Assembly: GCA_963753955.1 (NCBI GenBank)
Contig: CAVWEM010000024.1
Span: forward strand, 68,810 to 92,809
Source: an uncultured Gammaproteobacteria bacterium
Lineage (GTDB): Bacteria > Pseudomonadota > Gammaproteobacteria > Methylococcales > Methylococcaceae
Direction of reading: 5' to 3'
DNA: 24,000 nt
Part shown: piece by piece, positions 1-17,792 of the stretch
Layout: each line of letters begins with the position of its first letter
Position numbering within the stretch: position 1 is the stretch's first letter
Made by a program: the position numbers and the translations under genes
The notes under the pieces: generated by a model
Seen by the model: only the letters and a program-made list of their open reading frames with translations
Told to the model about the DNA's origin: nothing
Databases searched by the model: none

Positions 1-99
1 AGAAATAAAGCTAACCAGCTAATGCAATTATGGCATTTTCCTCCTCTTTTGGTTACTAAGTCTTTCTATAAAATTACAACATCTAGAATGTAATTAAAC

Positions 100-852: not shown

Positions 853-888
853 AAATGTCAACTGATAAAAACACAGAGATACCATAAA

Positions 889-2025
889 GTGCCTCATACA
901 ACTGATCAAAAAATCACAGCAGATATTGCGCTGTGCTACAAAGTGATTCATCCGCCAATTGATACTTTTGATATTAAAGATAATTCACTCGCGTCTGTCG
1001 TTGGAGAATCACCTATTTTGATTGCGATAGATGAATGTGTTGCAGCACTTTATACTACAAAAATCACACAGTATGCCAATAGTTTTGGTTTAATTTTACT
1101 AGGTATTGTTGAACTTGGCGGTATGGAATCCGATAAAAATTGGAATTCTGTAGAGTCAGTGATTCAGGTTGCGATGGATTATGACTTGCCGCGAAACGGG
1201 ACTATAATAGGAATAGGTGGTGGTGTGGTTTTGGATGTAGCTGGCTTTGCTGCATCTATATATAGAAGAGGTATTAACTATATTCGTATACCTACATCAT
1301 TGATTGGCATCGTTGATGTCGGGGTTGGAATTAAACATGGAATAAATCACGCGGGCAAAAAAAATATCATAGGTTCATTTTATCCGCCTTTGGCTAATAT
1401 TAATGACATTAGACTCATTGCCACACAGCCACATGCGGCTATCATTAGTGGAATGGCTGAAATCATAAAACTTGGCATGGTATTTGATGTTAGTATTTTA
1501 GAAAAACTAGAACAGTATGGATCGAAACTAGCTCAATCAAGATTTCAAGAACCAATAGTGGTCGCACAAAGCGTCGTATTGCAATCTGAGCAGATTATGA
1601 TTAATGAATTGAGAAACGACCTTTTTGAATCAGATCTGCGCCGCGCTGTAAATTTTGGGCATACATTTAGTCCAGTACTTGAATCAATTAGCGGATTTCG
1701 AATCCCCCACGGGGAAGCGGTTGCGACAGACATGTTGCTTTCCACTGCAATTGCGGTACTAATTGGTACATGCCCTGCTTCAGATCTTACACGCTTGTCT
1801 ATGCTTTATAAACACATTGAAATGCCCTTACATCTTGATCTATGTACTGTCCAATCCCTTTCAAAGGCTATAGAAGAAGCTCGTTCTCACCGTGCAGGCG
1901 CACTTAACATGGTAGTGCCAAATCCAATTGGACAATCTTCATTTATAGACTCTGTGAGTGAGCAAACTTTGAACGATGCCTTAAAGCTTTCGCGTTATGC
2001 AATAGCTGAAGCTGTAATAAAATAG
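889..2025 (+). CDS. Sugar-phosphate cyclase of the 3-dehydroquinate-synthase superfamily (possibly sedoheptulose-7-P cyclase-like rather than AroB)
   Basis: 378-aa ORF with a GTG start directly after an in-frame TAA. NAD-binding 'GIGGGVVLDVAGFAAS' and 'RIPTSLIGIVDVGVGIKHGIN' are present. Metal-ligand contexts are 'AEIIKLGM', 'NFGHTFSPVLE' and 'HGEAVATDM'. The AroB box 'VDSSVGGKT' is replaced by 'VDVGVGIK'. Confidence 0.85.
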   Translation: MPHTTDQKITADIALCYKVIHPPIDTFDIKDNSLASVVGESPILIAIDECVAALYTTKITQYANSFGLILLGIVELGGMESDKNWNSVESVIQVAMDYDLPRNGTIIGIGGGVVLDVAGFAASIYRRGINYIRIPTSLIGIVDVGVGIKHGINHAGKKNIIGSFYPPLANINDIRLIATQPHAAIISGMAEIIKLGMVFDVSILEKLEQYGSKLAQSRFQEPIVVAQSVVLQSEQIMINELRNDLFESDLRRAVNFGHTFSPVLESISGFRIPHGEAVATDMLLSTAIAVLIGTCPASDLTRLSMLYKHIEMPLHLDLCTVQSLSKAIEEARSHRAGALNMVVPNPIGQSSFIDSVSEQTLNDALKLSRYAIAEAVIK

Positions 2026-2035
2026 GGGATACTCA

Positions 2036-3046
2036 ATGAATGCTTTCGTTTTTGACTTAGGCGGAACATTTATTCGTTGTGGAGTCTTATCTTCCTTTAA
2101 AGGAGTTCTGCATCAACGAAAATCCAAGATATCCGATATATTTAACTCACAAAATACGGAACTGGTCTGGCGAGATATTGAAGGATATTTCTGTGAGTAT
2201 ATAAACCACCACTCACAAGTACTTTCTCTAAACGCACCAATAGTTATAGCTTTTCCTGGCCCTGTTGTAAATCAAAAGAAATTGCTTCAGGCTCCAACGA
2301 TAAACAAAAACAGCGAACCTGTCCCAAACTTAGCAAACCGCTTGCAACACAGAACAGGACGCAATGTTTACTTTATTAACGATTTATCGGCTGCCGCATG
2401 GTATTTCAGTAGACAAACTACATTTCGCCGATTTATGGTTGTAACGATAAGCAGCGGCATTGGCAGCAAAATTTTTGATCGCGACAATGCTATTGGTGTT
2501 TTGGACAATGTACCCTATGCGGGTGAAATTGGTCACCTTACTGTAGATCACTCAATAAACGCACCAAAGTGTGATTGTGGCAAACTTGGGCATCTAGGTG
2601 CCATAGCCTCTGGCCGAGGAATAGAAAGAGCTGCTAGACAATTAGCTATTGATAATCCTACAGCATTTTCTTATTCGCTTTGTGTCCAGCAATTCTCAGC
2701 CTCAGCAAAAACCTTAAATAATGAAGACCACATTTTGCCTTCGGCGCTTCTAGGAGACAATTGGAGTCTGGACATAGTTCGTCGCTCTACTGCTCCCTTG
2801 GCGCAAACTATAGCAACAATTTTCTTAGCATCCGGATTAGAGAAAATTATTATTATTGGTGGTTTTGCGACAAATCTTGGAAGTATTTATCTAAATATCA
2901 TTCGTGAAGAATTTCTCAAATTTATGAATTATGAAGTACTGCCTAACGCACTATCAGAAATGATTGTTTTAGGAGAACTTACCGAAGATGCCTGTCTTCT
3001 TGGAGCCGCTACTTTTGCAGAAATATCGTCTATTATAACTCCATGA
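2036..3046 (+). CDS. ROK-family sugar/cyclitol kinase
   Basis: 336 aa, with SD AGGGGA 6 nt upstream. Contains the N-terminal 'FDLGGTFIRCG' (DxGGT ATPase motif) and the ROK region 'ISSGIGSKIF...YAGEIGH'. The Zn motif is 'GHLTVD...CDCGKLGHLG', with His where the usual CxCGxxGC has its last Cys. Confidence 0.85.
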   Translation: MNAFVFDLGGTFIRCGVLSSFKGVLHQRKSKISDIFNSQNTELVWRDIEGYFCEYINHHSQVLSLNAPIVIAFPGPVVNQKKLLQAPTINKNSEPVPNLANRLQHRTGRNVYFINDLSAAAWYFSRQTTFRRFMVVTISSGIGSKIFDRDNAIGVLDNVPYAGEIGHLTVDHSINAPKCDCGKLGHLGAIASGRGIERAARQLAIDNPTAFSYSLCVQQFSASAKTLNNEDHILPSALLGDNWSLDIVRRSTAPLAQTIATIFLASGLEKIIIIGGFATNLGSIYLNIIREEFLKFMNYEVLPNALSEMIVLGELTEDACLLGAATFAEISSIITP

Positions 3047-4311
3047 AAGTCGCAATTTTAGGAGGCAGCGCACCTAGCACACCTAGCTTATTTAATTTTT
3101 TTTCTAAACAGCCGAAGCTTCCTAAGCTTGAGATTTCGCTTGTCGGTCGGTCAACGCAACGCTTGCAAGCCGTAGTTCGTGCCTCACGTATTTTAGCAGC
3201 GGGAAGTGGTATTAGTATTGACGGATATCCAGCAACTCCCAGCGGACTTGCCTGCGCATTGGAGGGTGCTACCCTCGTGCTAATTCAGGTACGTGTAGGC
3301 GGATATTCTGGAAGAACATTCGATGAAAACATGCCCTTAAAATACGGGATCTGTGGAGATCAAGATTTAGGGCCAGGCGCTTTATCTTCAGGACTCCGTG
3401 TATGGCCTGAAATTCTGATATTATTAGAGCAAATTTACATTCATGCCCCCAATGCCTATATCGGAATGCTCTCATCTCCTGTTAGCTTATTAGTAGGAGC
3501 CGCCAATCTATCGTTTCCTCAATTAAATACATTTGGAATATGTGAGCTTCCATGGCGAAAATTACTCCAACTAGCAAACAGTTTATCACTCAACACAGAC
3601 GAATTAAAAGTTGGGTATTATGGCATCAATCATTTTGGGTGGTTTTATAAATTCCAATTCCATGGCTGTGATATATTTAGTGATATAAGAAAAAATCCAG
3701 GTAACTACAAAAACCTTACAGGAATAGACGAATTTATGCGCTTTGGGGGATTTCCAACACCATATGTTTATCTGCATATCAAACAACATGAATTCCTTTT
3801 GCAACAGCTCGGTCGTGAAGTAAGCCGGGGCGAAGAACTTGAGCAAATTTGCGAACGGGTGTTCCCCTGTTTTCAAGATGGAGATATCAGCGTTATTCGA
3901 GATGCACTTACTCTACGACCTGCGCCCTGGTATGAGTTCGCTATTGGCCCTCTAATTTTGGAACTCGCAGACTGTAAGCTCACAACACAGTTTTTCTTGT
4001 CTGTTGTTGAAAACACAGGAATGAACTCTAATTCAATTCCAGAAATTTCAGAAACTCCTCATATCATTATTTCTGGGAAACTCATACGCAACAATCTTAA
4101 CGTCACTGTTCCTGATGAGATCAAACAGATGGTAGATCGCATAAAATTGTTTGAAATAGCCGCAATATCTGCAATGATTCACCAGAATACCAAACTGCTT
4201 ACCGAAGCATTGATGCTTCATCCATGGGTATCTAATTTAGATGCAGCATCTTCTATGTCGTCAGAAATACTTCAGTACAATAGACGCACCAATTCTATAT
4301 CAAAACGTTGA
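3043..4311 (+). CDS. Glycoside-hydrolase family 4-like NAD(+)/Mn-dependent enzyme
   Basis: 422 aa; ATGA overlap with the ROK kinase stop. By eye it aligns to GH4 6-phospho-glycosidases. Matching segments are N-terminal 'MKVAILGGSAPSTPSL', 'QVRVGG...MPLKYGICGDQDLGPGALSSGLRVWPEIL', 'GICELP' (Cys ligand) and 'YGINHFGWF' (His ligand). Confidence 0.8.
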   Translation: MKVAILGGSAPSTPSLFNFFSKQPKLPKLEISLVGRSTQRLQAVVRASRILAAGSGISIDGYPATPSGLACALEGATLVLIQVRVGGYSGRTFDENMPLKYGICGDQDLGPGALSSGLRVWPEILILLEQIYIHAPNAYIGMLSSPVSLLVGAANLSFPQLNTFGICELPWRKLLQLANSLSLNTDELKVGYYGINHFGWFYKFQFHGCDIFSDIRKNPGNYKNLTGIDEFMRFGGFPTPYVYLHIKQHEFLLQQLGREVSRGEELEQICERVFPCFQDGDISVIRDALTLRPAPWYEFAIGPLILELADCKLTTQFFLSVVENTGMNSNSIPEISETPHIIISGKLIRNNLNVTVPDEIKQMVDRIKLFEIAAISAMIHQNTKLLTEALMLHPWVSNLDAASSMSSEILQYNRRTNSISKR

Positions 4312-4359
4312 TGTGCATTTGATAACAAATGCAAACCTTATCTAGCAACGGGAGGTGAG

Positions 4360-5202
4360 ATGAAAGCTAACATAAATGATCTTCATATTTCTCAGTATAA
4401 TAACCAAGGATATTTGGTTATTCCAGATGTTTTTTCTCAATCCGAAATCATGGAAATGCGCTCTGAATCAGATAGACTATTGGAGTTAATGGTAAATTCA
4501 TCCCTTGCCAATCAACGTACTAGCGAACGTCTAGACTTGCGTGTTCTACCATCAGGCAATCAAGTAATCCGAAAAATACAACCAATCAATGATCTTTCAC
4601 TTTATTTTACTAAAGTATCACAGGATAATCGTGTTATCTCAACCATTAGGGAGCTTATTTCAGACGACCCAGAACTAATTGAGGAGAAATTGAGTTACAA
4701 ACAACATTTACCAGTTCCGATTGATGGAATTCATGCTTTAAATGCAGAAGATCGATTTTTTGCTCATTGCGACTGGGCATATCATAAAGAACAAGGCTAT
4801 CCACCAAAAACAATTAATGTTGGTATTTGGCTTGACGATAGCCCTCCAATGTCTGGCCCTCTTCAGGTATGGCCGGAATCACACAAAAAGATATTACATC
4901 ACGACAAGATTGGAAAAAGCTATATTGTGCCTGAAGAACTTCTTCAAGATTACAATCCAGTTGAGCTTATCCCCGAAGCAGGTGCGGTAATTTATTTTCA
5001 TGGTCTACTGGTGCATTCCTCAAAACCTAATTCAACCCGACTACCAAGAAGGATTATGTTCTTCAATTATGTGGCGAAAAGTGAGTCAGTTGGATTTGAT
5101 GTTAGAAATGGGCCAAGACGATACAATGAATCGCCTTATGAATGGAACTACCAGATAATGAAAGATAAAGGTACTTTCATTGACAAATTCAAAATCACTT
5201 AA
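4360..5202 (+). CDS. Phytanoyl-CoA dioxygenase (PhyH) family Fe(II)/2-oxoglutarate oxygenase
   Basis: 280 aa, with strong SD GGGAGGTGA before the ATG. N-terminal 'YNNQGYLVIPDVFSQSEI' is typical of PhyH. The HxD facial triad sits in 'FAHCDWAYH' and the distal His in 'FHGLLVHSSKPN'. Confidence 0.8.
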   Translation: MKANINDLHISQYNNQGYLVIPDVFSQSEIMEMRSESDRLLELMVNSSLANQRTSERLDLRVLPSGNQVIRKIQPINDLSLYFTKVSQDNRVISTIRELISDDPELIEEKLSYKQHLPVPIDGIHALNAEDRFFAHCDWAYHKEQGYPPKTINVGIWLDDSPPMSGPLQVWPESHKKILHHDKIGKSYIVPEELLQDYNPVELIPEAGAVIYFHGLLVHSSKPNSTRLPRRIMFFNYVAKSESVGFDVRNGPRRYNESPYEWNYQIMKDKGTFIDKFKIT

Positions 5203-5366
5203 TATTAACCTGTACCATCAAATGCTGTTATAAGAAAATTGCTTCATTCAACATAACCACACTTTAATTGTTTCGATGATTATGACTTTCTCGTGGCAGC
5301 TACAGCGATGTTGTACTTTGTGAAGTCCTTTGCGCCCACCGTCAGTAAGCCCTTGTAAAGAAAAGA

Positions 5367-5405
5367 CCTACGAACATCCTCTGGAGGATGCTCGTAGGTT
5401 TGCTT
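5367..5405. terminator. Putative bidirectional intrinsic terminator between convergent genes
   Basis: Hairpin CCTACGAACATCCT-CTGG-AGGATGCTCGTAGG (5367-5398; 14 base-pair positions including one mismatch, 4-nt loop). It is followed by TTTGCTT on + and by a T-rich run (TCTTTTCTTT) on -. It lies between the PhyH stop and the helicase stop. Confidence 0.5.
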
Positions 5406-5411
5406 AAACGC

Positions 5412-7943
5412 TCAAATCAACCGCTTCGCCAATTCGACTTCCAAGCTGTCGCCTTCCTCTTGGTTGAGAACGTCCAGTCCGGTATCGGGCATGTCGCCCG
5501 ACGTGGACTGGCTGACGGCGATTTTCTTGGCCATGAGGCGCAAACAGTCAATTTGCGCCGTTTCCGCATAGCCGAGGTAAAACACCTCTACCCTTTGTTT
5601 CTGGCCAATGCGCCAAGAACGCCGGGAGGCTTGTTGAACCGTGAACACATTGTAGCCGCTCTGCATGAACACGATGCATGGGAAATCCAGCAAGTCCAAG
5701 CCGGTCTTGACCAATTCAGGATTACAGATCAGGACATCAATACCCCGGTCTACTTGCTCCAGAATCCAATCTTCCCGTTTCCCGGTTTCCACGCTTGAGC
5801 GCAGCACCGCCGCCTTGAAGCCTTCGGCTTGCAACAGGTTTTTCAGCCGTTGCGTGGTGTCGCGGGTGCCGCTGTAAATGCTGTAGACCAGCACCTTGCG
5901 GCCTTGGGCCTTCTGCTCCCGGCAAAGCCGGATCAGTTCAAGCTCCTTGGGCGCTGGCTCCTGTTCGCCGAATACGGATGCCGCATAGGCCAGCAACGCC
6001 CCGGTGCGCGGATGCTTCACCACCTCGTCGCGGAACCCGCAATCCGGCCAAGCCAGCAGCGCGTTCAACACGACGCCGAGCAAGCTCTTGTCGCCCTTGC
6101 GCAGCGCTTCCTTGAGTTCGGCGACCAGGCTGGAACGCAGCCTTTGGTAACGCTCGGCTTGTTCCGCTGCCATGCCGACCTCGACGAATTGCTCCTCGTA
6201 AGGCGGCAGGACGTTCCCGCCGATATCCCGCAGCTTGAGAAACGCCGTGTAAGGCAAGACGAAGCGGGCGATGCCCTTGGGTCCGAACCCCGGCGCTTTC
6301 TTGGTATGCACCGTGGTCTTGTTGCCCTTGGCGGTCTTGTGGCTACCTGCGTCGGTTTCCTTGTAGATGTCCTTGAGAACGCCATGCTCGCGCATGAATG
6401 CCAAGGCTGCGTGGGCTAGGCTGCCGCGCCGGTTGGCCTTGAACGCGTCTTCGATCATTCGTCGTGTAAGCACACGCCAAAGTAAGAAAAAGAGATCGTC
6501 TGCATAGCCGCCCATGAGCGTGCCGGTGAGCAACACCGCCTTGCGACATTTGGCCGCCAGCACACCCATGGCCTGGCCTTGGGCCGAGCCATCGTTCTTA
6601 TACTCATGGGCTTCATCCGCAATCAGCAGGTCGAAAAACCCTTGGGGGAGATACCTCTTGATGTACTCCGAGGCTTGGTAGCCGCCCTGTCCGAACGCGA
6701 AGGCTTGGGTTGCCAGACTCTTCTCCATCCTGACCGCTTGGCGGTCACTGAACACCAACTCGCCGTCTTCGTCCATCAAATTGATGAAATCAAACGGATT
6801 GGCATCCAGCATTCCGGCCAAGGTATCGGCCCCGAAACGGCCCAACAGCTTGTCCGCCGTCTTCGGGCCTATCGTCGGCAACTGGCACAGGGCATCCTTC
6901 ACGGTGGCCTGCCGGTCTTTGACGGCACCGGGCCGCTTCAATGTCCACAGCCGGGTTCCGCAATGTGGACAGGCTGCCCGTTTTTCGCTGGCGCTGGCGA
7001 GAAAGCTGTCTGCCGACATCCAACTGCCATCCACATCGGTCAGCACCGTCCCGCAATCGGGGCAGGCGGCATGTTCGACGGTTTGCACGAAGGACGACGA
7101 GTTCTCGTTGCCCTGTTCCGTGAATACCCGCCGGTGGGTTTTGCGCCGATGGATCACCGGCACCCAGTCGAATCCCAGACGCATCCTGACCCGGCCAATC
7201 ACATAGAACTCGGCTTGGCCGGTTTGTGGTTCGTGCTGGGTCGCACGGATGTTCAACAATTGCCTCAGCGTGTCCGGGCCGTTCAACACCCAGACCTTGG
7301 CGTCGGGGATGGTTTCCAGAATCTCCCGCCGCCATTTGTAAACCAGATGGGGCGGGGAGATGACCAAAGTCCGCTGGTAGCCTTCCGCCCGCAGCACTGC
7401 CGCGACCGAAATTGCCATCATGGACTTGCCCGTCCCCATCTCTGCATTGATGATGGCGGCGTCCTCGTCGGCATCCACCAACAGCTTGGCGACAGCCTGC
7501 ACGACCTCCCGCTGGGCGGGGAATGGCTGGCGCTTAAACCCGTCCATCACCTGCTCGCGGCGCGGGTCGGGCGTGCCATCGTAGACCGGAGGGTTCTGCA
7601 CGGCAACCGCCTGCATCAGCCCGTCGCCGAAATCGGCCACGAACTGCGACAGGGGGATGGCATCGCCAAACTCCGCCTCCGGGTCGTTCGCCGAACCGTC
7701 GGCAGGCACGCTGCGGGTCACCTCCCCGGTCTGGATGATCTCGCCGATGACTTCGGCGGCATCGCCCGGAAACAGGAATGCCCGCTCATAACGGTTCCAC
7801 TTGCCGCCGATGGCCTCCAGCACATTCTTGGTCTCTTCGTAGATTTTACGGTCGTACTCCTGGGCGAAAACCAAGGCATTGCCTTGGACTTTCGCCTCGG
7901 ACAGCACGTCCAGCACGTTCCACTTCACTTTAATTGTTTGCAT
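5412..7943 (-). CDS. SNF2-family DEAD/DEAH-box helicase with inserted Zn ribbon
   Basis: Motif I is 'AEMGTGKS', motif II 'LLIADEAHEYKN' and motif VI 'QASRRSWRIGQ'. Two CxxC pairs ('CPDCGT', 'CPHCGT') lie between motifs Ia and II. I prefer ATG at 7943, preceded by GAGGAG, over the TTG at 7982 used in the ORF track. Confidence 0.9.
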   Translation of the reverse strand: MQTIKVKWNVLDVLSEAKVQGNALVFAQEYDRKIYEETKNVLEAIGGKWNRYERAFLFPGDAAEVIGEIIQTGEVTRSVPADGSANDPEAEFGDAIPLSQFVADFGDGLMQAVAVQNPPVYDGTPDPRREQVMDGFKRQPFPAQREVVQAVAKLLVDADEDAAIINAEMGTGKSMMAISVAAVLRAEGYQRTLVISPPHLVYKWRREILETIPDAKVWVLNGPDTLRQLLNIRATQHEPQTGQAEFYVIGRVRMRLGFDWVPVIHRRKTHRRVFTEQGNENSSSFVQTVEHAACPDCGTVLTDVDGSWMSADSFLASASEKRAACPHCGTRLWTLKRPGAVKDRQATVKDALCQLPTIGPKTADKLLGRFGADTLAGMLDANPFDFINLMDEDGELVFSDRQAVRMEKSLATQAFAFGQGGYQASEYIKRYLPQGFFDLLIADEAHEYKNDGSAQGQAMGVLAAKCRKAVLLTGTLMGGYADDLFFLLWRVLTRRMIEDAFKANRRGSLAHAALAFMREHGVLKDIYKETDAGSHKTAKGNKTTVHTKKAPGFGPKGIARFVLPYTAFLKLRDIGGNVLPPYEEQFVEVGMAAEQAERYQRLRSSLVAELKEALRKGDKSLLGVVLNALLAWPDCGFRDEVVKHPRTGALLAYAASVFGEQEPAPKELELIRLCREQKAQGRKVLVYSIYSGTRDTTQRLKNLLQAEGFKAAVLRSSVETGKREDWILEQVDRGIDVLICNPELVKTGLDLLDFPCIVFMQSGYNVFTVQQASRRSWRIGQKQRVEVFYLGYAETAQIDCLRLMAKKIAVSQSTSGDMPDTGLDVLNQEEGDSLEVELAKRLI

Positions 7944-8011
7944 TGCCTGCTCCTCGTCAACTGGGATTAAGGGGCAGGCCAACCCCCAAGGGCGTTCTGC
8001 CCCAGGGGGTT
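7944..8011 (-). repeat. Intercistronic hairpin + RBS module, copy 1 of 3
   Basis: The - strand reads ACCCCCTGGGGCAGAACGCCCTTGGGGGTTGGCCTGCCCC-TTAATCCCAGTTGAC-GAGGAGCAGGCA-ATG. The stem is GGGGCAG/CTGCCCC with an inner CC[CTTG]GG tip. Confidence 0.7.
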
Positions 8012-8040: not shown

Positions 8041-8154
8041 TTAACGGTTAAGTAAATCGCCGATCATGGCGGTGGTGATCCAGGTCAATGGATCGTCGGC
8101 ATCGACAACCCGCGTGAAATAGCGGTCGCCAAGCTTGGCATGTTGCCGGGTGTA
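8041..8154 (-). pseudogene. 3' remnant of the hypothetical gene split by IS630 copy 1
   Basis: Joining 9320->9319 (TA) to 8152 downward continues the 9309..9647 frame. It then reads ...EFLDGNY-TRQHAKLGDRYFTRVVDADDPLTWITTAMIGDLLNR* with stop at 8041-8043. Confidence 0.75.
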
Positions 8155-8158
8155 TACT

Positions 8159-8719
8159 TTAGTGCTTTACAAACTGAACTTTATTAAAGGTTTGAAATTT
8201 GAGGTTAAGCAGAGTTTTAAGCATAGGCTCATATTCGTCTGTTCCCACTTTTGAAAGGCAATCCTGTATGGCTTCGGTGAAGAAGCCAAAACTCTCATAG
8301 TATTTAGAATACAGGCATTCTTTCTTGACGAACTTCCATAATCGTTCAATCAGATTTAAATTGGGCGAGTAGGCCGGTAAAAAAAGCAATTCGATACCAA
8401 GACTATCCGCCAACTCTTTTACCACCTTGGCATGTTGATATCTTGCATTGTCCAGCACCAAGGTGACTGGAACCTGAAACCCAATCTCGGCAATCGCCCT
8501 GAGCAATTCGCAGACGCTCTCCGCATTGATGTAGGTGTTATTTGTCACCGTAATGAGTTGATGCGTCCGTGCGTTGATTGCGCCTAATACATTAAATCTT
8601 TTTCGTCCCGCAGGGGCAGAAACAAAAAGCCGGTTCCAAAACCATAAATATCCAAGGAATGCCGCCCAGACAAAGTGCGCCGCATCCACGAAAAAAACTT
8701 CCCTGCGACCCGCCATCAT
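8159..8719 (-). CDS. IS630 transposase, DDE catalytic part (orfB)
   Basis: 186 aa with 'FFVDAAHF' (D), 'LVLDNARYQHA' (D) and 'LPAYSPNLNLIERLW' (E), the IS630 DDE pattern. Confidence 0.9.
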   Translation of the reverse strand: MMAGRREVFFVDAAHFVWAAFLGYLWFWNRLFVSAPAGRKRFNVLGAINARTHQLITVTNNTYINAESVCELLRAIAEIGFQVPVTLVLDNARYQHAKVVKELADSLGIELLFLPAYSPNLNLIERLWKFVKKECLYSKYYESFGFFTEAIQDCLSKVGTDEYEPMLKTLLNLKFQTFNKVQFVKH

Positions 8720-8822
8720 CTCTTCTAAGCGTTGCTCAAGCTTTTGTTCTTTAAAGATTTCTTGTTTTTTTGGCGTTCCGGGTCAGTTTGTTGGACGGGA
8801 ATTGAGCCTGTTTTATACCGGC

Positions 8823-9221
8823 TCAATCCAACGTTTTTTTTAAGAATCTATAAACAGCGGTGTTGCTTCGCTTGATCCCCGTGGTTTCCTCAATGCGGTG
8901 TCGAGCCTCACTAATGGTAGCAGGCGGTTTTTCAGCAATCGCTTCTTCAATTTTGTCGCGATGCAATGCTAGAACACTTTCTGGCTTGTGAAAATTAAGC
9001 TTCCGAATCCGATCCAATCCACCCTCTTGGTATTCGCGAAGATAACGGGCCAATGTGGCTCGCCCTCGAATATTGCTCAATTGACAGATTTGATGATGGG
9101 GCATTCCCAGAGATTTGTAGTACAAGACCTCCATTTTTTGACGGACACGCGGATGAGGATGGTATCGCTTTTCATACAGCAACTGCTCAACGGTTTCCGG
9201 AGAAAATTCTAGGCGAATCAT
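8823..9221 (-). CDS. IS630 transposase, N-terminal HTH part (orfA)
   Basis: 132-aa helix-turn-helix-type N-terminal region. It ends in a T8/A8 tract (8834-8841). Confidence 0.85.
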   Translation of the reverse strand: MIRLEFSPETVEQLLYEKRYHPHPRVRQKMEVLYYKSLGMPHHQICQLSNIRGRATLARYLREYQEGGLDRIRKLNFHKPESVLALHRDKIEEAIAEKPPATISEARHRIEETTGIKRSNTAVYRFLKKTLD

Positions 9222-9308
9222 ATCTTACTGAACTTGGGGATGTGTTTTTGGGCGTAGGTGTGGTTCAAAGCATTATACAGGAATTCGTAAAATGTTTTAT
9301 TTATTAGT

Positions 9309-9647
9309 TTAACAAGTATAATTTCCGTCCAAGAACTCGGAACACATGAACCGCTCCACACCGTCTGCCACCTCCCAATTCAGCGGAGGCAACATTTCAA
9401 GATGTTCGGTCCAGTACTCCAGGTTGGTTTCCTCGGGATCACGCAGGTAAAACCGGCGCTGGCATTCCAGGAACGCCGCCCAAGTGATGACCTCGTAATC
9501 ATCCGGCCCGCCGCTGTGATCGGCGGGGATTTTGGCCCGCCCGGCCTCGGCATACTCCGGGCTTTTGTAGAGATTCCAGGCTGAAGGACTTTCATCCTGA
9601 GCCTTGCTCGCCAGCACAAAACACGCTGGTTGTTCTTGGGTTGTCAT
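9309..9647 (-). pseudogene. Hypothetical protein, 3' end replaced by IS630 copy 1
   Basis: 112-aa ORF whose last 2 residues and stop come from IS sequence. ATG 9647 is preceded by GAGGAGCAGACC. The reconstructed pre-insertion protein is about 146 aa. Confidence 0.7.
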
Positions 9648-9709
9648 GGTCTGCTCCTCAAAATGTGGAAAGGGGCAGACATCCCCACGGGGCGCTGCCC
9701 CTTGGGGTA
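9648..9709 (-). repeat. Intercistronic hairpin + RBS module, copy 2 of 3
   Basis: The - strand reads ACCCCAAGGGGCAGCGCCCCGTGGGGATGTCTGCCCC-TTTCCACATTTT-GAGGAGCAGACC-ATG. The hairpin begins 14 nt after the upstream stop codon. Confidence 0.7.
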
Positions 9710-9722
9710 AGTCATGCTTGGC

Positions 9723-10055
9723 TCAGTCGTCGGCAAAGACGACCCACAGGCCGTCCATGAATCCGTTGGCCCGGCCTGACGGCAGTTTCAGCCGCACGGT
9801 CGGGCCTCGGATGTCGCCGTCGAAGCGGGCTTCGATGCCGACATTGAGTTCATGCAACAGCCTTTGGATTTCCATCTCGACGCCCTCCACCGCCAATTCT
9901 TCCCCATATTCCATGGCAAGTTCGCGGTGCCGGGACGATAGAGCCTTAAGCCTTTCGGCAACCAATCTGGCCAACAGGGGCGGAACCCCTTCATCAGCCA
10001 AAACAGCGTCCAAGGCATCAGGATTTCTGAAGGTATCGAAAATCGCGCTTAACAT
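9723..10055 (-). CDS. Hypothetical protein (110 aa)
   Basis: ORF with coding-like composition. ATG is preceded by GAGGAGCAGACC. No motif recognised. Confidence 0.6.
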   Translation of the reverse strand: MLSAIFDTFRNPDALDAVLADEGVPPLLARLVAERLKALSSRHRELAMEYGEELAVEGVEMEIQRLLHELNVGIEARFDGDIRGPTVRLKLPSGRANGFMDGLWVVFADD

Positions 10056-10126
10056 GGTCTGCTCCTCGAATTGAATGAACAGGGGCAGACCAACCCAAGG
10101 GCTTGTCTGCCCCTAGGGGTGGTTGG
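10056..10126 (-). repeat. Intercistronic hairpin + RBS module, copy 3 of 3
   Basis: The - strand reads ACCCCTAGGGGCAGACAAGCCCTTGGGTTGGTCTGCCCC-TGTTCATTCAATTC-GAGGAGCAGACC-ATG. The stem is 9 bp (GGGGCAGAC/GTCTGCCCC). Confidence 0.7.
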
Positions 10127-10465: not shown

Positions 10466-11032
10466 TTACAGCAGGCCATGTTCGGCAAACGAGTAAATCA
10501 CGTCGCCGACCACGAAATGGTCGAGCACGCGGATGTCGATCAAGTCTAGTGCCTGTTTTAGCCGCATCGTGATGTGCTTGTCGGGGAATATCTCGTTTTG
10601 GGCAGGCTGCCCGTCTTCGCCGTCGGCAGGCTGTCCATCGTTTGGAGGTTTCGCCACACCCGGCTTGTTGCGCCTGGATGTCGCTTTGGTTTTGGATTGG
10701 AGCGTCTCTTCCCCGGCTTCCGGGCCAATCGGATTGGCGTCGGCCAAAAGTGCGAATTCCGCTTGCCCGCCGGGCAGATCGTCAATCGCCGCCAGGGCCA
10801 ATGACGCCAAAGTGGCGCGGATTTCAATGACCATGCGGCCACCGGCCACATAGCTGGCGGGAAAAATTTCGGCAATGCCGAACTCGCCTTGGTAATGGCC
10901 TTCGCCGTATTGACCGAGGAACTCGTCACGCAAAACGAACTCGCCGATGTCGGTGACCAGCCGACCGACCGAGAAGTCGCCGTTGCGGCCGCGGACCGAG
11001 CGTATGTATAAATTTCCTGGGAGGTTGATCAT
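10466..11032 (-). CDS. Hypothetical protein (about 188 aa)
   Basis: I prefer ATG 11032 ('MINLPGNLYIRSV...', AGAGG upstream) over the longer track start at 11080. It has a structured N-terminal half and a low-complexity, charged middle. No family recognised. Confidence 0.55.
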   Translation of the reverse strand: MINLPGNLYIRSVRGRNGDFSVGRLVTDIGEFVLRDEFLGQYGEGHYQGEFGIAEIFPASYVAGGRMVIEIRATLASLALAAIDDLPGGQAEFALLADANPIGPEAGEETLQSKTKATSRRNKPGVAKPPNDGQPADGEDGQPAQNEIFPDKHITMRLKQALDLIDIRVLDHFVVGDVIYSFAEHGLL

Positions 11033-11564
11033 GGGGGTTGCCTCTTGCTGAAACGCAAGGCACCTCCCATGACCGGGCAAGTGCCCTGTCAGGGTTGTGG
11101 GGTGTCCGGGGACGCTTAAATCCCCGGACGAATTGGAAAACGCGGCGGGCTTTTCACCTGCCGCCGCTGAATTAGGACCGCTGTCATGTCATTGGAGCGG
11201 TTGGGGACGTCTGCCCGCGACCATCCGAAGATTACGTTGATCGACGGAAGATAGATTATCGCGTCCAGGGAAGCGCAGACACGCCTGGAAAGCCTTTGGC
11301 TTTGGGTGCGGCTGAATCGCAGTCGCCACGAGTGAAAAATATATTCTACAACACCGGCATGAAAAATCGCAATGCAGAATGGGCTTCGCAATGGGCCTCC
11401 TGCCAAAATACCTTTTGGTTACTGGCAGGCAGAGGGTGAATCAAACGGTCAGACCGCTTCATATACAAGGAGGCAAGCTCCATCCAATAATCGTCATGAT
11501 GCTGGAGGTATTTACGCATCAGAACATCCCATACTCTACTGTGTTTCGTCCAAGCTACACTGGC

Positions 11565-12038
11565 TCACAAGTTTGCAAACGTCTTAAAAAAGTTCGCTCC
11601 AGCCTTCAGAACGTTGGCTAATTCCTTTGGAATACCTTCGTAGAATTCAACACCGTCAGGGCCAATTTTCTTCACTCTAGCCGCTAGAATTAATCCGCCA
11701 AGGACAAGCCCACCAACAGCCAAAGTAACTGGGTCAAATGCCTGAACTTGCGTCCGAGCTGCTTTTTCGACTGCTGTGCTACTCCACTCCCGGGCTGCAG
11801 GATCTGCATCAATCAATAGTAATGTAAGGGCTACCCGGCAAGCCTTACCTGCTTCAGTAGTACTAATGCTTGGCTCAGTGACCCAACTAGGTAAAGCGAT
11901 TTGTTGCCTACTTGTATAATTCTCAGTTTCCCTTATGACAGCATACGCTTGGAGTCCGTGTTTTGCAAACCACATTTGAGTCACTTCCGATAGTGCCTCA
12001 ATTGCTGCTATATCATTGATCTTGCTGACATCTATCAT
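11565..12038 (-). CDS. Membrane-anchored protein of unknown function (third gene of the protease operon)
   Basis: 157 aa; ATGA overlap with the upstream gene. One predicted TM helix 'VTLAVGGLVLGGLILAARV' lies near the C-terminus, followed by a short amphipathic tail. Confidence 0.65.
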   Translation of the reverse strand: MIDVSKINDIAAIEALSEVTQMWFAKHGLQAYAVIRETENYTSRQQIALPSWVTEPSISTTEAGKACRVALTLLLIDADPAAREWSSTAVEKAARTQVQAFDPVTLAVGGLVLGGLILAARVKKIGPDGVEFYEGIPKELANVLKAGANFFKTFANL

Positions 12039-12262
12039 ATCATTACCCTACGCATTGGCTGACCATGAGCTTGCCCAAGATCTTCTACAACAACTTTAAC
12101 ACCCTCAAAACTTTGAGGAATGTTTCTGCGGAAATTATCATCAACTGCTACAAGTAGAACAATGTTGCCGCTTCTCTTGGCGAGGCCAACAGACTGGAAG
12201 CCTGGTGTATTGTGGAGCTTCTTGATTAGCTCATCACGTTTTTCTATCAAGGAATGTGTCAT
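12035..12262 (-). CDS. Small protein (75 aa) of unknown function, translationally coupled to the protease
   Basis: ATG 12262 overlaps the protease TGA (ATGA). The track's longer start at 12292 would overlap the protease by 34 nt. The sequence 'QSVGLAKRSGNIVLLVAV...FEGVKVVVEDLGQA' weakly resembles the protease N-domain. Confidence 0.6.
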   Translation of the reverse strand: MTHSLIEKRDELIKKLHNTPGFQSVGLAKRSGNIVLLVAVDDNFRRNIPQSFEGVKVVVEDLGQAHGQPMRRVMI

Positions 12263-12693
12263 ATCAATTCTCCATCTATATGCTGGAGACACGAAAAGGC
12301 GGGGTGAAATAAGCTTCCCTTATGCGTGGCACCTACTAAAAAGCCAGCAGCCAATCCACTTTCCGTATAAACAAGTGCGCCGGAATCGCCTGGAGCGCTA
12401 CACGCTATACCATTATAGCTCGGGATAACGAAGTTGAGATCACCATAAAGATATTTCTTTCCGTTGGAAAATTTAATGGTGAAAGCGGCCAAGCAAGCCC
12501 CATCGAGAATGCCTTCAGAAAATCCTGATGTTCGACCCATCATATAAACCGGTTTCTCAAGATGTTCGATGAGACCATCTTGATCTAATACCCCTTTGAT
12601 TGGCATCCACCGACTCGTATTCCGAGGATCTATAACGACGTTCTCTTCAGGACATATATCTTCATCATCATAACTCTGCAACGGCAATATCAT
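12259..12693 (-). CDS. Trypsin-like (S1/chymotrypsin-fold) serine protease, C-terminal part carrying the catalytic Ser (frame-shifted)
   Basis: Contains 'GDSGALVY' (the GDSG nucleophile motif). Its frame opens only 2 codons upstream of its ATG and overlaps the upstream ORF by 26 nt. Confidence 0.7.
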   Translation of the reverse strand: MILPLQSYDDEDICPEENVVIDPRNTSRWMPIKGVLDQDGLIEHLEKPVYMMGRTSGFSEGILDGACLAAFTIKFSNGKKYLYGDLNFVIPSYNGIACSAPGDSGALVYTESGLAAGFLVGATHKGSLFHPAFSCLQHIDGELI

Positions 12694-13333
12694 TTTTATT
12701 TAGAACAGCATTAGGATCGTTCTGTTCTGAGTAATGCGTCAAATAGGAACATTTGGCTAGCGTTCCGACCCTATACTGTATATCAGCAACGATATCTGGA
12801 CGGCCAGGACTAATTATTGGATCACCATTCTGCGCTATATTATTGCAGCCAAAAACGTGTGCTGCGCTTGTAAAACCCTTAAATTCACCTTGTCGCTTAG
12901 GTTGCTTAAATTTTACAAATGCACCTAAAGAACCTGCCAAACCATGTATATGACTTACAGAGCTTCCTATAACCAATTGTTTATTACCTGAAATCTGCTT
13001 TGACACCGCAAGTGTTGGCATGACCGCCTGTGCGAAACCAATTACTTTTACTGATACCCTACTTGGCTCTTTTTTCTGTAGAGCCATAGCCTCGTTATAG
13101 GCCGAACCCTCATCTTTTTCCAGATAGATAGCTAATGCTTCTTTCCCATTTATAATGGTTTTAACCACTCCCAAGCGATTGCTAGGACGTTCGAGGATAA
13201 AACCTTCGTTATCATCTTGTCGGACGGGTTCTTTTCGATTCAAACTATCCAGAAAGTCCTTAATGATCTCTACAGTTTTTACGTTTGTGAAAGCAGACAG
13301 AACTGCTGTCGTGATTAGAGTTTCTAGAGCCAT
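12668..13333 (-). CDS. Trypsin-like serine protease, N-terminal part: N-domain plus catalytic His and Asp (frame-shifted)
   Basis: I prefer ATG 13333, preceded by AAGGAG. 'GSLGAFVKF...GFTSAAHVF' supplies the His motif and 'NDIAVAEL' the Asp motif. The ORF ends in TGATGATGA immediately after the Asp motif. Confidence 0.7.
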   Translation of the reverse strand: MALETLITTAVLSAFTNVKTVEIIKDFLDSLNRKEPVRQDDNEGFILERPSNRLGVVKTIINGKEALAIYLEKDEGSAYNEAMALQKKEPSRVSVKVIGFAQAVMPTLAVSKQISGNKQLVIGSSVSHIHGLAGSLGAFVKFKQPKRQGEFKGFTSAAHVFGCNNIAQNGDPIISPGRPDIVADIQYRVGTLAKCSYLTHYSEQNDPNAVLNKNDIAVAEL

Positions 13334-13691
13334 TTCAAAGTTCTCCTTCGCAGCAACGCCGAACAACTTTCCTTTTTATTCAGGCGAATTGAACTCATCG
13401 GTCAACCTACTGAATAAATTAAGCCCAGTTTTCATTAGGCAAGAAAATCTCGTTGTTATTATCATGCTAATGCTCAAATATAAACATTATCTGGGATCGA
13501 TCATAAAATCGCAAAATAGATTTTGCCGCAACGCCATCTGGCTCTCGAAAGGATCACGCCAGTAGAGTAGATCACATCAATCCCAAAAATCGGTCGAACA
13601 AGACACCCTCTTCAAGACTGAACGATGCACTTTACAGAAGGCTCTGTCAACCCCCTATGAACGATGAAGCCGTTTGACCAACCCTTGTTGG

Positions 13692-14117
13692 CTAAACGTA
13701 TAACTTGATGCCCACTCGTTGGGCAGCATTAGCCAAGTCGCCATCGAATACCAGGAAGCGGAAATCCAAGCCGGAGACGGCACGCCAAAGCGTTTCCACT
13801 GCCGCTAGATGCACACTGTCGTAACCTCGCAAGCGATGTGCTTCCGCCAAATCGCCCGCCCGGCGCACCAATTCATGAGTGACGCCAACGATCTCAAAAC
13901 TCGGCCAGTCGCGTTCAAAATCGCCGCGCCATGACGGGAGCCTGTCCTCGTATCCGGGCTGTTGCGCCTTGCGGGCAAATGCGGCACGGGTTTCGGCATA
14001 GGCGATTAGATGGGTCGCGCAAACCTTCGCCTCGGCAACCGCCGCCCGAACCCGGTCGGAGCCTGCTTCGTCCGCGTACAGCTTCACCACGGCGGAAGTG
14101 TCCAGGTAAAGGATCAT
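13692..14117 (-). CDS. vapC: PIN-domain toxin VapC
   Basis: 141 aa; N-terminal 'MILYLDTSAVVKLY' (PIN acidic residue context). ATGA overlap with the upstream antitoxin. Confidence 0.85.
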   Translation of the reverse strand: MILYLDTSAVVKLYADEAGSDRVRAAVAEAKVCATHLIAYAETRAAFARKAQQPGYEDRLPSWRGDFERDWPSFEIVGVTHELVRRAGDLAEAHRLRGYDSVHLAAVETLWRAVSGLDFRFLVFDGDLANAAQRVGIKLYV

Positions 14118-14404
14118 CCGCGCAATTCGCTGACGATTTCAGCGAGGTTTTGCTCGTCCGGGCCGATGCGAACCGGATTGGCCGAACCCATCGGCTTGTT
14201 GCCGTTGCCGGGAATGAGCCACGGCAAGGCGCGTAGCCGCGCAATGGACGCTTCCTCCAAGGTTTCCGGCGTGGCGTCCGCAGACACGGGGACGAGCCGC
14301 GCCAATGGCTTGCCGCGCAGCGTCACCAGCACTTCCTCGCCTAACGCCGCCCGGCGCAGGTATTCGGACAGATGGGATTTAAGATCTCGAACGTTGGTTT
14401 CCAT
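14114..14404 (-). CDS. vapB: Phd/YefM-type antitoxin (VapB role)
   Basis: 96 aa; N-terminal 'VRDLKSHLSEYLRRAALGEEVLVTLRGKPLARLVP' is typical of Phd/YefM-fold antitoxins. SD AAAGGTGA upstream. Confidence 0.8.
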   Translation of the reverse strand: METNVRDLKSHLSEYLRRAALGEEVLVTLRGKPLARLVPVSADATPETLEEASIARLRALPWLIPGNGNKPMGSANPVRIGPDEQNLAEIVSELRG

Positions 14405-15747: not shown

Positions 15748-16010
15748 CTAGCGCCCCAGATAAACCGCCGTGACTTCTTCGCGGTTGTGGCCCATTTCCT
15801 GGCTGATAATGAGCCTGGCGGCAAGGTCGGCTTCCCGCTGTGCGGGCGTCAGTTCCCCGCGCCTTGGGCCTCCAGCATGGGGCGCTTTCCATCCGGTCAA
15901 TTCCAAATACCGATCTTGGGCATAGCCATGCCGTAGCCCGTGGGCTTTCCGGTCGCCTTCGGCGATACCGGCTTTCTTGGTTTCCCGCTCATAGAGATTC
16001 TTCTGGAATA
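15748..16010 (-). pseudogene. Tyrosine recombinase/integrase, C-terminal fragment (split by IS630 copy 2)
   Basis: The - strand translation is FQKNLYERETKKAGIAEGDRKAHGLRHGYAQDRYLELTGW...GHNREEVTAVYLGR*. It contains the HxxR box and the catalytic Tyr context. It joins in frame to 17175..17792 across the IS. Confidence 0.85.
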
Positions 16011-16107
16011 TACTTGTTAAACTAATAAATAAAACATTTTACGAATTCCTGTATAATGCTTTGAACCACACCTACGCCCAAAAACACATCCCCAAGTTCA
16101 GTAAGAT

Positions 16108-16506
16108 ATGATTCGCCTAGAATTTTCTCCGGAAACCGTTGAGCAGTTGCTGTATGAAAAGCGATACCATCCTCATCCGCGTGTCCGTCAAAAAATGGAG
16201 GTCTTGTACTACAAATCTCTGGGAATGCCCCATCATCAAATCTGTCAATTGAGCAATATTCGAGGGCGAGCCACATTGGCCCGTTATCTTCGCGAATACC
16301 AAGAGGGTGGATTGGATCGGATTCGGAAGCTTAATTTTCACAAGCCAGAAAGTGTTCTAGCATTGCATCGCGACAAAATTGAAGAAGCGATTGCTGAAAA
16401 ACCGCCTGCTACCATTAGTGAGGCTCGACACCGCATTGAGGAAACCACGGGGATCAAGCGAAGCAACACCGCTGTTTATAGATTCTTAAAAAAAACGTTG
16501 GATTGA
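16108..16506 (+). CDS. IS630 transposase, N-terminal HTH part (orfA)
   Basis: Translation is identical to 8823..9221. It ends at the A8 tract 16488-16495. Confidence 0.85.
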   Translation: MIRLEFSPETVEQLLYEKRYHPHPRVRQKMEVLYYKSLGMPHHQICQLSNIRGRATLARYLREYQEGGLDRIRKLNFHKPESVLALHRDKIEEAIAEKPPATISEARHRIEETTGIKRSNTAVYRFLKKTLD

Positions 16507-16609
16507 GCCGGTATAAAACAGGCTCAATTCCCGTCCAACAAACTGACCCGGAACGCCAAAAAAACAAGAAATCTTTAAAGAACAAAAGCTTGAGCAACGC
16601 TTAGAAGAG

Positions 16610-17170
16610 ATGATGGCGGGTCGCAGGGAAGTTTTTTTCGTGGATGCGGCGCACTTTGTCTGGGCGGCATTCCTTGGATATTTATGGTTTTGGAACCGGC
16701 TTTTTGTTTCTGCCCCTGCGGGACGAAAAAGATTTAATGTATTAGGCGCAATCAACGCACGGACGCATCAACTCATTACGGTGACAAATAACACCTACAT
16801 CAATGCGGAGAGCGTCTGCGAATTGCTCAGGGCGATTGCCGAGATTGGGTTTCAGGTTCCAGTCACCTTGGTGCTGGACAATGCAAGATATCAACATGCC
16901 AAGGTGGTAAAAGAGTTGGCGGATAGTCTTGGTATCGAATTGCTTTTTTTACCGGCCTACTCGCCCAATTTAAATCTGATTGAACGATTATGGAAGTTCG
17001 TCAAGAAAGAATGCCTGTATTCTAAATACTATGAGAGTTTTGGCTTCTTCACCGAAGCCATACAGGATTGCCTTTCAAAAGTGGGAACAGACGAATATGA
17101 GCCTATGCTTAAAACTCTGATTAACCTCAAATTTCAAACCTTTAATAAAGTTCAGTTTGTAAAGCACTAA
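16610..17170 (+). CDS. IS630 transposase, DDE part (orfB)
   Basis: Identical to 8159..8719 except for one residue (LINLKF vs LLNLKF). Confidence 0.9.
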   Translation: MMAGRREVFFVDAAHFVWAAFLGYLWFWNRLFVSAPAGRKRFNVLGAINARTHQLITVTNNTYINAESVCELLRAIAEIGFQVPVTLVLDNARYQHAKVVKELADSLGIELLFLPAYSPNLNLIERLWKFVKKECLYSKYYESFGFFTEAIQDCLSKVGTDEYEPMLKTLINLKFQTFNKVQFVKH

Positions 17171-17174
17171 AGTA

Positions 17175-17792
17175 TACATAAGAACGCCCTGCCGGAATCA
17201 ACGAACCATTTCCCACAAGCTGGCGGACTCGCCCTAGCAATTCGCGCTGGGCTTCATTACGAATAGGTATATCGCGTGGCCTGCCACCTTTCGTCCAAGA
17301 CGGCTTTAAATGGATATGGTTATCACGAACCGCATAAGCCGGTTGGAATTTCATGGCCTCCTCGCGGCGTAATCCGAAGTGTGCCTGCATCTCCAAACTC
17401 AAGCGTAGATGAGCGTCTTTTATTTGCGCCAGTTTCTCCGGGTCTAGGCTGATTTGTTTTCCTTCTGGTTTAACATAAACCCGGTTTTCAATGCCCAGCT
17501 TCCCATTGTCATTGGGGATAAGGGAGGGCCTGCCGATCTTTTCCGCCCACCACCGCAAATGCGACAGGCGGTTCTTCAGGGTTCCCGTGGATAATCCTTC
17601 CGCCTGCCAGCGCTTCACCAAGGCTTCGACATGCTTGGGCTTCAGGGAAATGGCCTTCATGTTTCGATAGCCCATTTCCTTCAATTGGCGGGCCATCAGA
17701 TCCAGCACTTGGTGACGCGCCGCCTGTGTTCCGATGGAATCCTCACGGTGTTGGTTGGTCAGTTTTTTCAATTCCCATTGCAGATCGTCCAT
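17175..17792 (-). pseudogene. Tyrosine recombinase/integrase, N-terminal fragment (206 codons)
   Basis: N-terminal SAM-like domain plus the first catalytic Arg context 'HFGLRREEAMKF'. The native sequence ends at ...LIPAGRSYV; the remaining 10 residues of the track ORF are IS-derived. Confidence 0.85.

Follow-up and report, generated by a model that had tools for sequence, protein, structure and literature searches.

A conserved operon pairing a NAL1-like protease with a small membrane protein in a Methylococcaceae genome

Background

The plant protein NARROW LEAF 1 (NAL1) is agronomically important, and its cage was solved recently. The ATP-binding alpha/beta domain of NAL1 (residues 89-172, with the ATP residues R120, R122, K123, K139, Q149 and L151) contacts the protease domain of the neighbouring subunit to give a trimer, and two trimers stack into the hexameric cage needed for activity (PMC12012508). 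Bacterial relatives of NAL1 are uncharacterised, and no description of bacterial NAL1-like operons was found in the literature. A stretch of 24,000 nucleotides (nt) from an uncultured gammaproteobacterium of the family Methylococcaceae (assembly GCA_963753955.1, contig CAVWEM010000024.1, positions 68,810-92,809), hereafter the window, was analysed around an operon on its minus strand (11565-13333), in which four open reading frames (ORFs) make up three genes: a serine protease related to NAL1, a small protein (gene 2) and a membrane partner (gene 3). The conserved core of this operon, which is horizontally mobile, is a NAL1-type cytoplasmic S1 protease together with a small membrane protein. 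An original prediction, made from the DNA letters and their ORFs, had proposed it as a three-component module with the logic of a protease-activated toxin.

Compared with NAL1 (PDB 8HAU, 8PME, 8PMG), the protease likewise carries its S1 His/Asp/Ser domain behind a small alpha/beta domain and is intracellular without a signal peptide. Unlike NAL1, it is bacterial, measures 357 amino acids (aa) without the long N- and C-terminal extensions, and is encoded in an operon with an apparent free copy of its N-domain and a membrane protein, neither of which accompanies NAL1. The pro-regions of alpha-lytic protease and streptogrisin, which act as foldase and inhibitor, are also small alpha/beta domains that bind and control a protease, the role proposed here for gene 2. 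Those enzymes are secreted, with a covalently bound pro-region that is later degraded, whereas here the protease is cytoplasmic, and the domain is found fused to it as well as in a gene of its own.

Bacterial gasdermins are membrane effectors of immunity that are cleaved by neighbouring proteases. As in the gasdermin-protease systems, the protease gene of the window stands in tight linkage with the gene for a candidate membrane-active protein whose C-terminal part includes a short conserved segment, in mobile or defence-like DNA; unlike in those systems, the candidate is a 157-aa, all-helical protein and the protease has no sensor repeats or NTPase. With type II toxin-antitoxin (TA) systems, such as the adjacent vapBC pair, the operon shares small, translationally coupled genes carried as mobile-element cargo, but it lacks both a DNA-binding antitoxin and any known toxin fold, its largest gene encodes a protease, and a frameshift in that gene is tolerated.

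Conservation of the gene pair

Homologues of the three genes were located and their neighbourhoods compared (related loci carry the prefix L, related proteins the prefix P). The protease and gene 3 were adjacent in every related locus with enough flanking sequence (about 20). Protease-seeded loci (L001/L002, L003/L004, L005, L006 and L010) repeated the three-gene arrangement with its order unchanged, the genes overlapping or separated by 4-5 nt, and in two protease-seeded loci the small gene 2 ORF had been left uncalled. Genome and metagenome collections searched with protease alignments gave no relatives; the tail motif of gene 3, used as an independent seed, did find loci, and in these the protease was always next door where the sequence sufficed. 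Gene 2 lay between the two genes in L018, L019, L021, L022, L023 and L024, as well as in the partial loci L014, L016 and L026, and homologues of gene 2 were placed at this position in 15 loci. Pairwise identities among the proteases were correlated with those among the gene 3 proteins (r 0.83 over 15 loci), a value reached by none of 5000 Mantel permutations.

The proposal that the three genes form a unit therefore stands in part. Gene order and close spacing are shared by copies in many unrelated contexts, but the triplet is not strict, and the gene order is reversed in L020. Because gene 2 is missing from four loci, the core is taken to be the protease and gene 3, with gene 2 as a frequent accessory. 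Loss of gene 2 is recent and polyphyletic, since the protease of L025, a locus without gene 2, is 61-62% identical to the proteases of L006 and L022, which have it.

The protease

The chymotrypsin-fold triad noted in the original prediction was confirmed: the motifs TSAAHVF, NDIAVAEL and GDSGALVY hold His159, Asp215 and Ser317, respectively. These three residues (the serine within GDSG) were invariant in an alignment of 17 homologues, as was Gly266 of a GRTSG motif. As a single sequence, the window protease had no match in Pfam, PADLOC or NCBIfam, and a word-indexed search of 5.8 billion proteins returned only 22 clusters. The profile of the 17-sequence alignment, in contrast to the single sequence, matched nine plant NAL1 chains (E 4e-16 to 2e-15). 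The next-closest solved proteases, streptogrisin B and alpha-lytic protease, were far weaker matches (E 0.002-0.008).

The NAL1 match covers profile positions 60-331, and so both the protease domain and the alpha/beta domain preceding it, with the triad of the window protease aligned to the NAL1 triad region. Profile positions 60-86 sit opposite NAL1 131-162, a stretch that includes loop 2 of the ATP-binding domain (residue numbers follow from the alignment), and the NAL1 ATP ligands R120, R122 and K123 fall outside the aligned region of the window protease. The N-domain of about 115 aa, which had been described as unknown, thus aligns with the ATP-binding-domain region of plant NAL1. Weak matches to Pfam Nal1_C (PF25819) were obtained for the distant relatives P0012, P0013, P0014, P0016 and P0018. 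Judged by these profile alignments, the protease is a bacterial member of the NAL1-like branch of S1 proteases, a recognisable family rather than an unrecognised architecture.

The expected absence of a signal peptide held as well. The N-terminus (MALETLITTAVLSAF) has no basic n-region or cleavage motif and includes acidic residues, a call made from N-terminal composition. Neither a PDZ domain nor any other Pfam domain was found in the protease. With no basic n-region and no PDZ domain, the protease looks cytoplasmic.

The frameshift in the window copy

A single surplus T at 12670 on the minus strand, inserted between TTA (Leu221) and GAT (Asp222), splits the protease gene. Deleting this T in silico restored a 357-aa protein that is exactly colinear with eight intact homologues (356-364 aa), and homologues read VELDDET uninterrupted across the site. 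The 5' part spans an N-terminal amphipathic helix, the alpha/beta domain (about residues 49-104) and the first barrel with His159 and Asp215; the 3' part holds the GRTSG motif, the second barrel and GDSG with Ser317, and its stop codon overlaps the start of gene 2 (ATGA). P0001 is 100% identical to the 5' part over 221 aa. The Logan contig L009, from an assembly of run ERR11594402, agrees with window 11247-14189 throughout (100% identity), frameshift included. At the level of an assembly comparison, the lesion in this separate assembly indicates that the frameshift is not an artefact of one assembler. The insertion inactivates the protease gene, and the window copy of the operon is therefore probably a pseudogene, a recent and non-functional relic. 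Programmed +1 frameshifting was considered and rejected, since every homologue is unshifted and UUA-U-GAU is no known slippery motif.

The small alpha/beta protein

Gene 2 had been credited with no recognisable motif, and was found to resemble the protease's own N-domain. When 16 gene 2 sequences from related loci were compared with 32 proteases using hhalign, gene 2 residues 18-69 aligned with protease residues 49-104, the equivalent of the NAL1 ATP-binding domain (P 3.4e-4, score 29.9). The score lay about 7.7 standard deviations (sd) above that of 40 column shuffles (mean 11.7, sd 2.4, maximum 20.8). The AlphaFold2 (AF2) model of gene 2, built from a two-sequence alignment with a predicted local distance difference test (pLDDT) of 78, has a helix at residues 4-16 and then three to four strands, among them 22-30, 33-40 and 55-61. 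Foldseek with this model gave no significant solved relative (best E 0.09); the alpha-lytic pro-region 2pro_A was reached at rank 14 (E 0.18, TM 0.43) and 3pro_C at rank 48, neither of them significant. A word-index search with gene 2 gave two matches only, and its homologues were gathered from the loci instead. Matches of the gene 2 profile to leucine-rich-repeat receptor kinases were rejected as repeat-driven noise.

With moderate confidence, gene 2 may be regarded as a free-standing copy of the protease N-terminal alpha/beta domain. Locus L012 (924-3281) encodes a full-length NAL1-like protease, an 82-aa gene-2-like ORF (hhalign P 1.8e-4) and, directly after the latter, a 241-aa ORF consisting of a protease domain only. 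The last two look like a split protease paralogue, which backs the view of gene 2 as a detached N-domain.

In distant NAL1-like proteases (24-26% identity), a gene-2-like protein of 77-82 aa comes next and is followed by a third gene that differs between loci. On the Rhizobium leguminosarum plasmid pRlvC (L030, NZ_CP025505.1 70218-72816), a 324-aa protease is followed by an 81-aa alpha/beta protein, weakly similar to gene 2 (P 0.011), and a phospholipase D (PLD)-like protein, with an M48 metalloprotease upstream. In L007, the third position is taken by a 173-aa ORF, followed by a Trypsin_2/Abhydrolase_8 protein, and in L012 by the protease-domain-only ORF, a second protease.

The small membrane protein

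An exhaustive profile search of 1.84 billion representative proteins (clusters at 50% identity) recovered 130 relatives of gene 3, 100 of them at E<=1e-10, and nearly all were 145-170 aa long. The protein consists of a HEAT-like N-domain (about residues 1-98), a conserved Asp-Pro, a Gly-rich hydrophobic helix (about 104-121), RVKK and the tail VEFYEGIPxxLAxV. Across 98 members, the hydrophobic helix and the tail are the most strongly conserved parts (consensus G..ligliLAaRvk.ig...veFyeG.P..l..v). Hydropathy averages 2.07 on the Kyte-Doolittle scale over the best 19 residues, and the helix is flanked by 1.6 K+R on its N side against 3.0 on its C side. The hydropathy value supports the C-proximal transmembrane helix that had been read from the window, and the hydrophobic helix is likely to be a membrane helix. 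L005 has kept only the helix and tail of gene 3, its N-domain having diverged.

In the AF2 model (18 sequences, pLDDT 70), four helices are placed at pLDDT 75-90, with a further helix at 109-119. A gasdermin fold was looked for in gene 3 and not seen, the model being all-helical; Foldseek against the PDB gave nothing below E 1 (best E 1.4) and against viral structures gave nothing. Pfam HEAT did not match any of 18 family members. One outlier, P0131 (1289 aa), is a STAND NTPase (nSTAND3) with a long HEAT array, which gene 3 profile positions 25-103 match eight times (full-sequence E 1.5e-12, single repeats 1-17 bits). This protein is the only link from gene 3 to a named fold, and "HEAT-like" is used here for the N-domain as a lead.

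Neighbourhoods of related loci

Mobile-element genes lie within about 5 kb of the operon in the window (IS630, integrase remnant), L003 (integrase, resolvase), L005 (truncated comM-like gene, serine recombinase), L011 (resolvase, HNH, IS630), L013 (IS30-like), L017 (IS256-like, rve) and L023 (DDE fragment). TA, restriction-modification (RM) or candidate defence neighbours are vapBC in the window, an N6 methylase and S subunit directly adjacent in L023, DUF4238-Pers in L025, and a nucleotidyltransferase with HEPN in L013, where an AAA_15 ATPase weakly similar to AbiL/PtuA/GajA is also present. The L013 pair (5136-5922) is of MntA/HepT type and sits about 1 kb upstream of the protease-gene 3 doublet, parallel to vapBC in the window. 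The GC content of the loci ranges from 0.42 to 0.69. These neighbourhoods are compatible with defence or addiction cargo.

NCBIfam and Pfam gave nothing significant for the three proteins. The statement that no described system has this composition holds on the features tested, with no defence, TA, gasdermin or HtrA match.

Interpretation

We favour, tentatively and with a probability of roughly 0.4, the reading that the module is protease-gated membrane-effector cargo of mobile elements, serving conflict, defence or addiction. The protease would assemble into an oligomer, as NAL1 does, and gene 2 would mimic the N-domain, competing for or capping the interface between this domain and the protease and so gating assembly or activity. 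The gene 3 protein would be the dedicated partner of the protease, as substrate or receptor, and its cleavage or release would alter the membrane state of an oligomerising, GxxxG-containing helix; that state would be the output. The frameshift, tolerated while genes 2 and 3 are intact, is consistent with a protease that acts as an activator or with a gene 3 protein that is a harmless anchor.

Several observations weigh against this reading. Gene 2 is absent from L013 (a Solirubrobacteraceae metagenome-assembled genome), L015, L017 and L025, and models that make it essential fail. Its similarity to the N-domain is moderate (HHsuite probability 38%), and Foldseek with the gene 2 model does not recover NAL1. 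Opposite Lys139, which contacts ATP in NAL1, the window protease has an Asp and the family consensus a Lys, and nucleotide binding by the window protease is therefore not to be assumed. The PADLOC-DB v2 families gave no match to the three proteins at E<=1. The tail of gene 3 is modelled at pLDDT <50, and by the positive-inside rule it would lie in the cytoplasm with the 100-aa N-domain outside, which is unusual for a protein without a signal peptide. The mobile or defence-like setting proposed in the original prediction is often found among related loci but is anecdotal: in raw counts over about 11 informative loci, without background statistics, 4/11 have TA, RM or candidate defence genes, and three (L001, L006, L019) look like ordinary chromosome.

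The predicted orientation of gene 3 and the three chromosomal loci also speak for a possible, though not a likely, alternative, in which the protease is a membrane-tethered regulatory or quality-control enzyme. Gene 3 would then be a non-toxic anchor, adaptor or sensor, with its N-domain perhaps facing outward and its cytoplasmic tail docking the NAL1-like cage, and the cage would degrade other substrates, as a signalling or housekeeping accessory and not as a conflict system. The helix and tail are the best-conserved parts of gene 3, as expected of a docking interface, and are the only parts conserved in L005; HEAT-like repeats are typical interaction scaffolds. Set against this are the rarity and patchiness of the family (130 clusters), its frequent mobile-element and TA/RM neighbours, and the lack of any regulator (sigma factor, two-component gene) conserved alongside. 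The exchange of the third gene for PLD-like or hydrolase genes in distant relatives is also more in keeping with an effector than with an anchor.

An addiction module, with gene 3 as a membrane toxin that the protease, with or without gene 2, continuously destroys as its antidote, would account for small, tightly coupled genes on mobile elements beside other TA pairs. It is nevertheless improbable: the protease is frameshifted while genes 2 and 3 are intact, which argues against an antidote to a constitutively toxic gene 3, and the organism is alive with the lesion in two assemblies. Moreover, none of the three proteins has a helix-turn-helix (HTH), ribbon-helix-helix, AbrB or toxin domain, and a 357-aa protease would be an atypical antitoxin. 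A cassette from a decayed prophage, for example a prohead or maturation protease with a holin-like membrane protein, is suggested by the small size and hydrophobic helix of gene 3 and by PHROGs, which match the protease domain only (phrog_20754, 'protease', E 4.6e-13; phrog_25502). This origin is very improbable, given that no gene 3 relatives were found in 2.9 million viral contigs and no protease match by tblastn in 50,697 phage genomes, that the Foldseek search of viral structures was empty, and that none of the roughly 25 loci contains phage structural genes. Gene 3 is accordingly not recognisable as a phage structural protein in any of these collections. The pair itself was not found in the viral contigs, the phage genomes or 72,556 plasmids, where only distant proteases of about 25% identity occurred. 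That the protease is a housekeeping enzyme of HtrA/DegP or alpha-lytic type, secreted or periplasmic and with neighbours unrelated to it, is scarcely credible: the S1 fold is shared and the next-best solved relatives are of the alpha-lytic and streptogrisin type, but the protease has neither signal peptide nor PDZ domain, and its neighbours are strictly conserved and co-diverge with it.

Should the protease act on gene 3, the favoured protease-gated reading would describe a compact new membrane module, plausibly a mobile defence or addiction system, and would offer a simple bacterial model for the assembly and regulation of NAL1-type cages. By analogy, the combination of a constant protease and partner with a variable third gene resembles modular conflict systems, and it suggests a broader modular family outside current defence-system catalogues. 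That a NAL1-like protease with a free N-domain copy forms the chassis of modular prokaryotic conflict systems, with the third gene as a swappable effector and plant NAL1 descending from it, is a doubtful extension.

Genomic setting of the operon

Coordinates of the operon and of adjoining features are listed in Table 1. The ATGA stop/start overlaps described for the minus-strand ORFs at 12259-12262 and 12035-12038 are present in the sequence. A Shine-Dalgarno AAGGAG lies 8 nt ahead of the protease ATG at 13333, and a promoter scan placed a promoter-like site, a consensus match only, at 13514-13486 upstream of the protease.

Table 1 Features of the window in and around the protease operon
Feature	Position	Strand	Basis
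ORF with protease 5' part	12668-13366	-	ORF list
Protease gene, 5' part (residues 1-221 of the repaired 357 aa)	12671-13333	-	ORF list, sequence
Frameshift site TTA-T-GAT, with in-frame premature TGA at 12668-12670	12668-12673	-	Sequence, homologues, L009
ORF with protease 3' part, +1 frame	12259-12693	-	ORF list
Protease gene, 3' part (residues 222-357)	12259-12669	-	Sequence, homologue alignment, profile match
Gene 2, 75 aa from ATG	12035-12262	-	ORF list, AF2 model, homologues at loci
Gene 3, 157 aa	11565-12038	-	ORF list, AF2 model, family alignment
AT-rich non-coding region upstream of protease	13334-13691	-	Sequence, promoter scan
AT-richer segment holding the operon (approximate boundaries)	11400-13650	.	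Composition, repeat search
VapC, PIN domain; adjoins the operon, not part of the module	13692-14117	-	Pfam
Phd/YefM-type antitoxin; not part of the module	14114-14404	-	Pfam
IS630-family copy 1 (HTH + DDE_3)	8151-9320	-	Pfam, repeat search
IS630-family copy 2	16009-17178	+	Pfam, repeat search

Positions 1-5200 of the window have a GC content of 0.37-0.43 and look like host chromosome, with DHQ-synthase-like, ROK, GH4 glycosidase and PhyH genes. From about 5.4 kb, a GC-rich (about 0.6) and visibly decayed integrative element follows, which includes genes for an SNF2 helicase, a DUF3275/RadC chimera, Phd/YefM-VapC, a HerA/FtsK-like ATPase and an integrase, and further merT/merP, an ACR3 transporter, an ArsC-like phosphatase and a TauE exporter. 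The AT-richer segment reported around the operon is real, with GC 0.40-0.48 over about 11.4-13.65 kb against 0.56-0.63 on either flank. At about 0.42, the operon segment resembles the host-like positions 1-5200 and the insertion sequence (IS) copies (about 0.45) and not the GC-rich island, which suggests a later arrival than that of the island. Neither direct nor inverted repeats were found to flank the AT-rich segment, a megablast search with the island backbone in plasmids and E. coli genomes gave nothing that would define the boundaries of the insert, and the window contains no Rfam families or tRNAs.

The two IS630 copies (1170 nt each) are 100% identical and inverted, and they bracket 6.7 kb including the operon; their nearest relatives are on Thiodictyon, Pseudanabaena and Acaryochloris plasmids. 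Such an arrangement may represent a composite-transposon-like unit, or else offer a substrate for inversion. Copy 2 adjoins the integrase gene at 17142-17792.

At the edge of the island, an 856-aa SNF2/ResIII helicase (5412-7982, minus strand) shows weak likeness to DISARM DrmD and to Snf2 helicases that regulate pili, in every case far below curated cut-offs. The 204-aa ORF at 10466-11080 (minus strand) joins DUF3275 (profile 1-134 of 201) to the last 38 residues of a RadC JAB domain, as though a deletion in the decaying backbone of an integrative conjugative element had fused the two. Two copies of a roughly 45-nt motif (CATGGTCTGCTCCTC... and a GC-rich hairpin-like stretch) stand 408 nt apart, at 9645-9691 and 10053-10101. 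They lie at the starts of two consecutive small minus-strand ORFs (9309-9647 and 9723-10055), which apparently share the same start and upstream signal.

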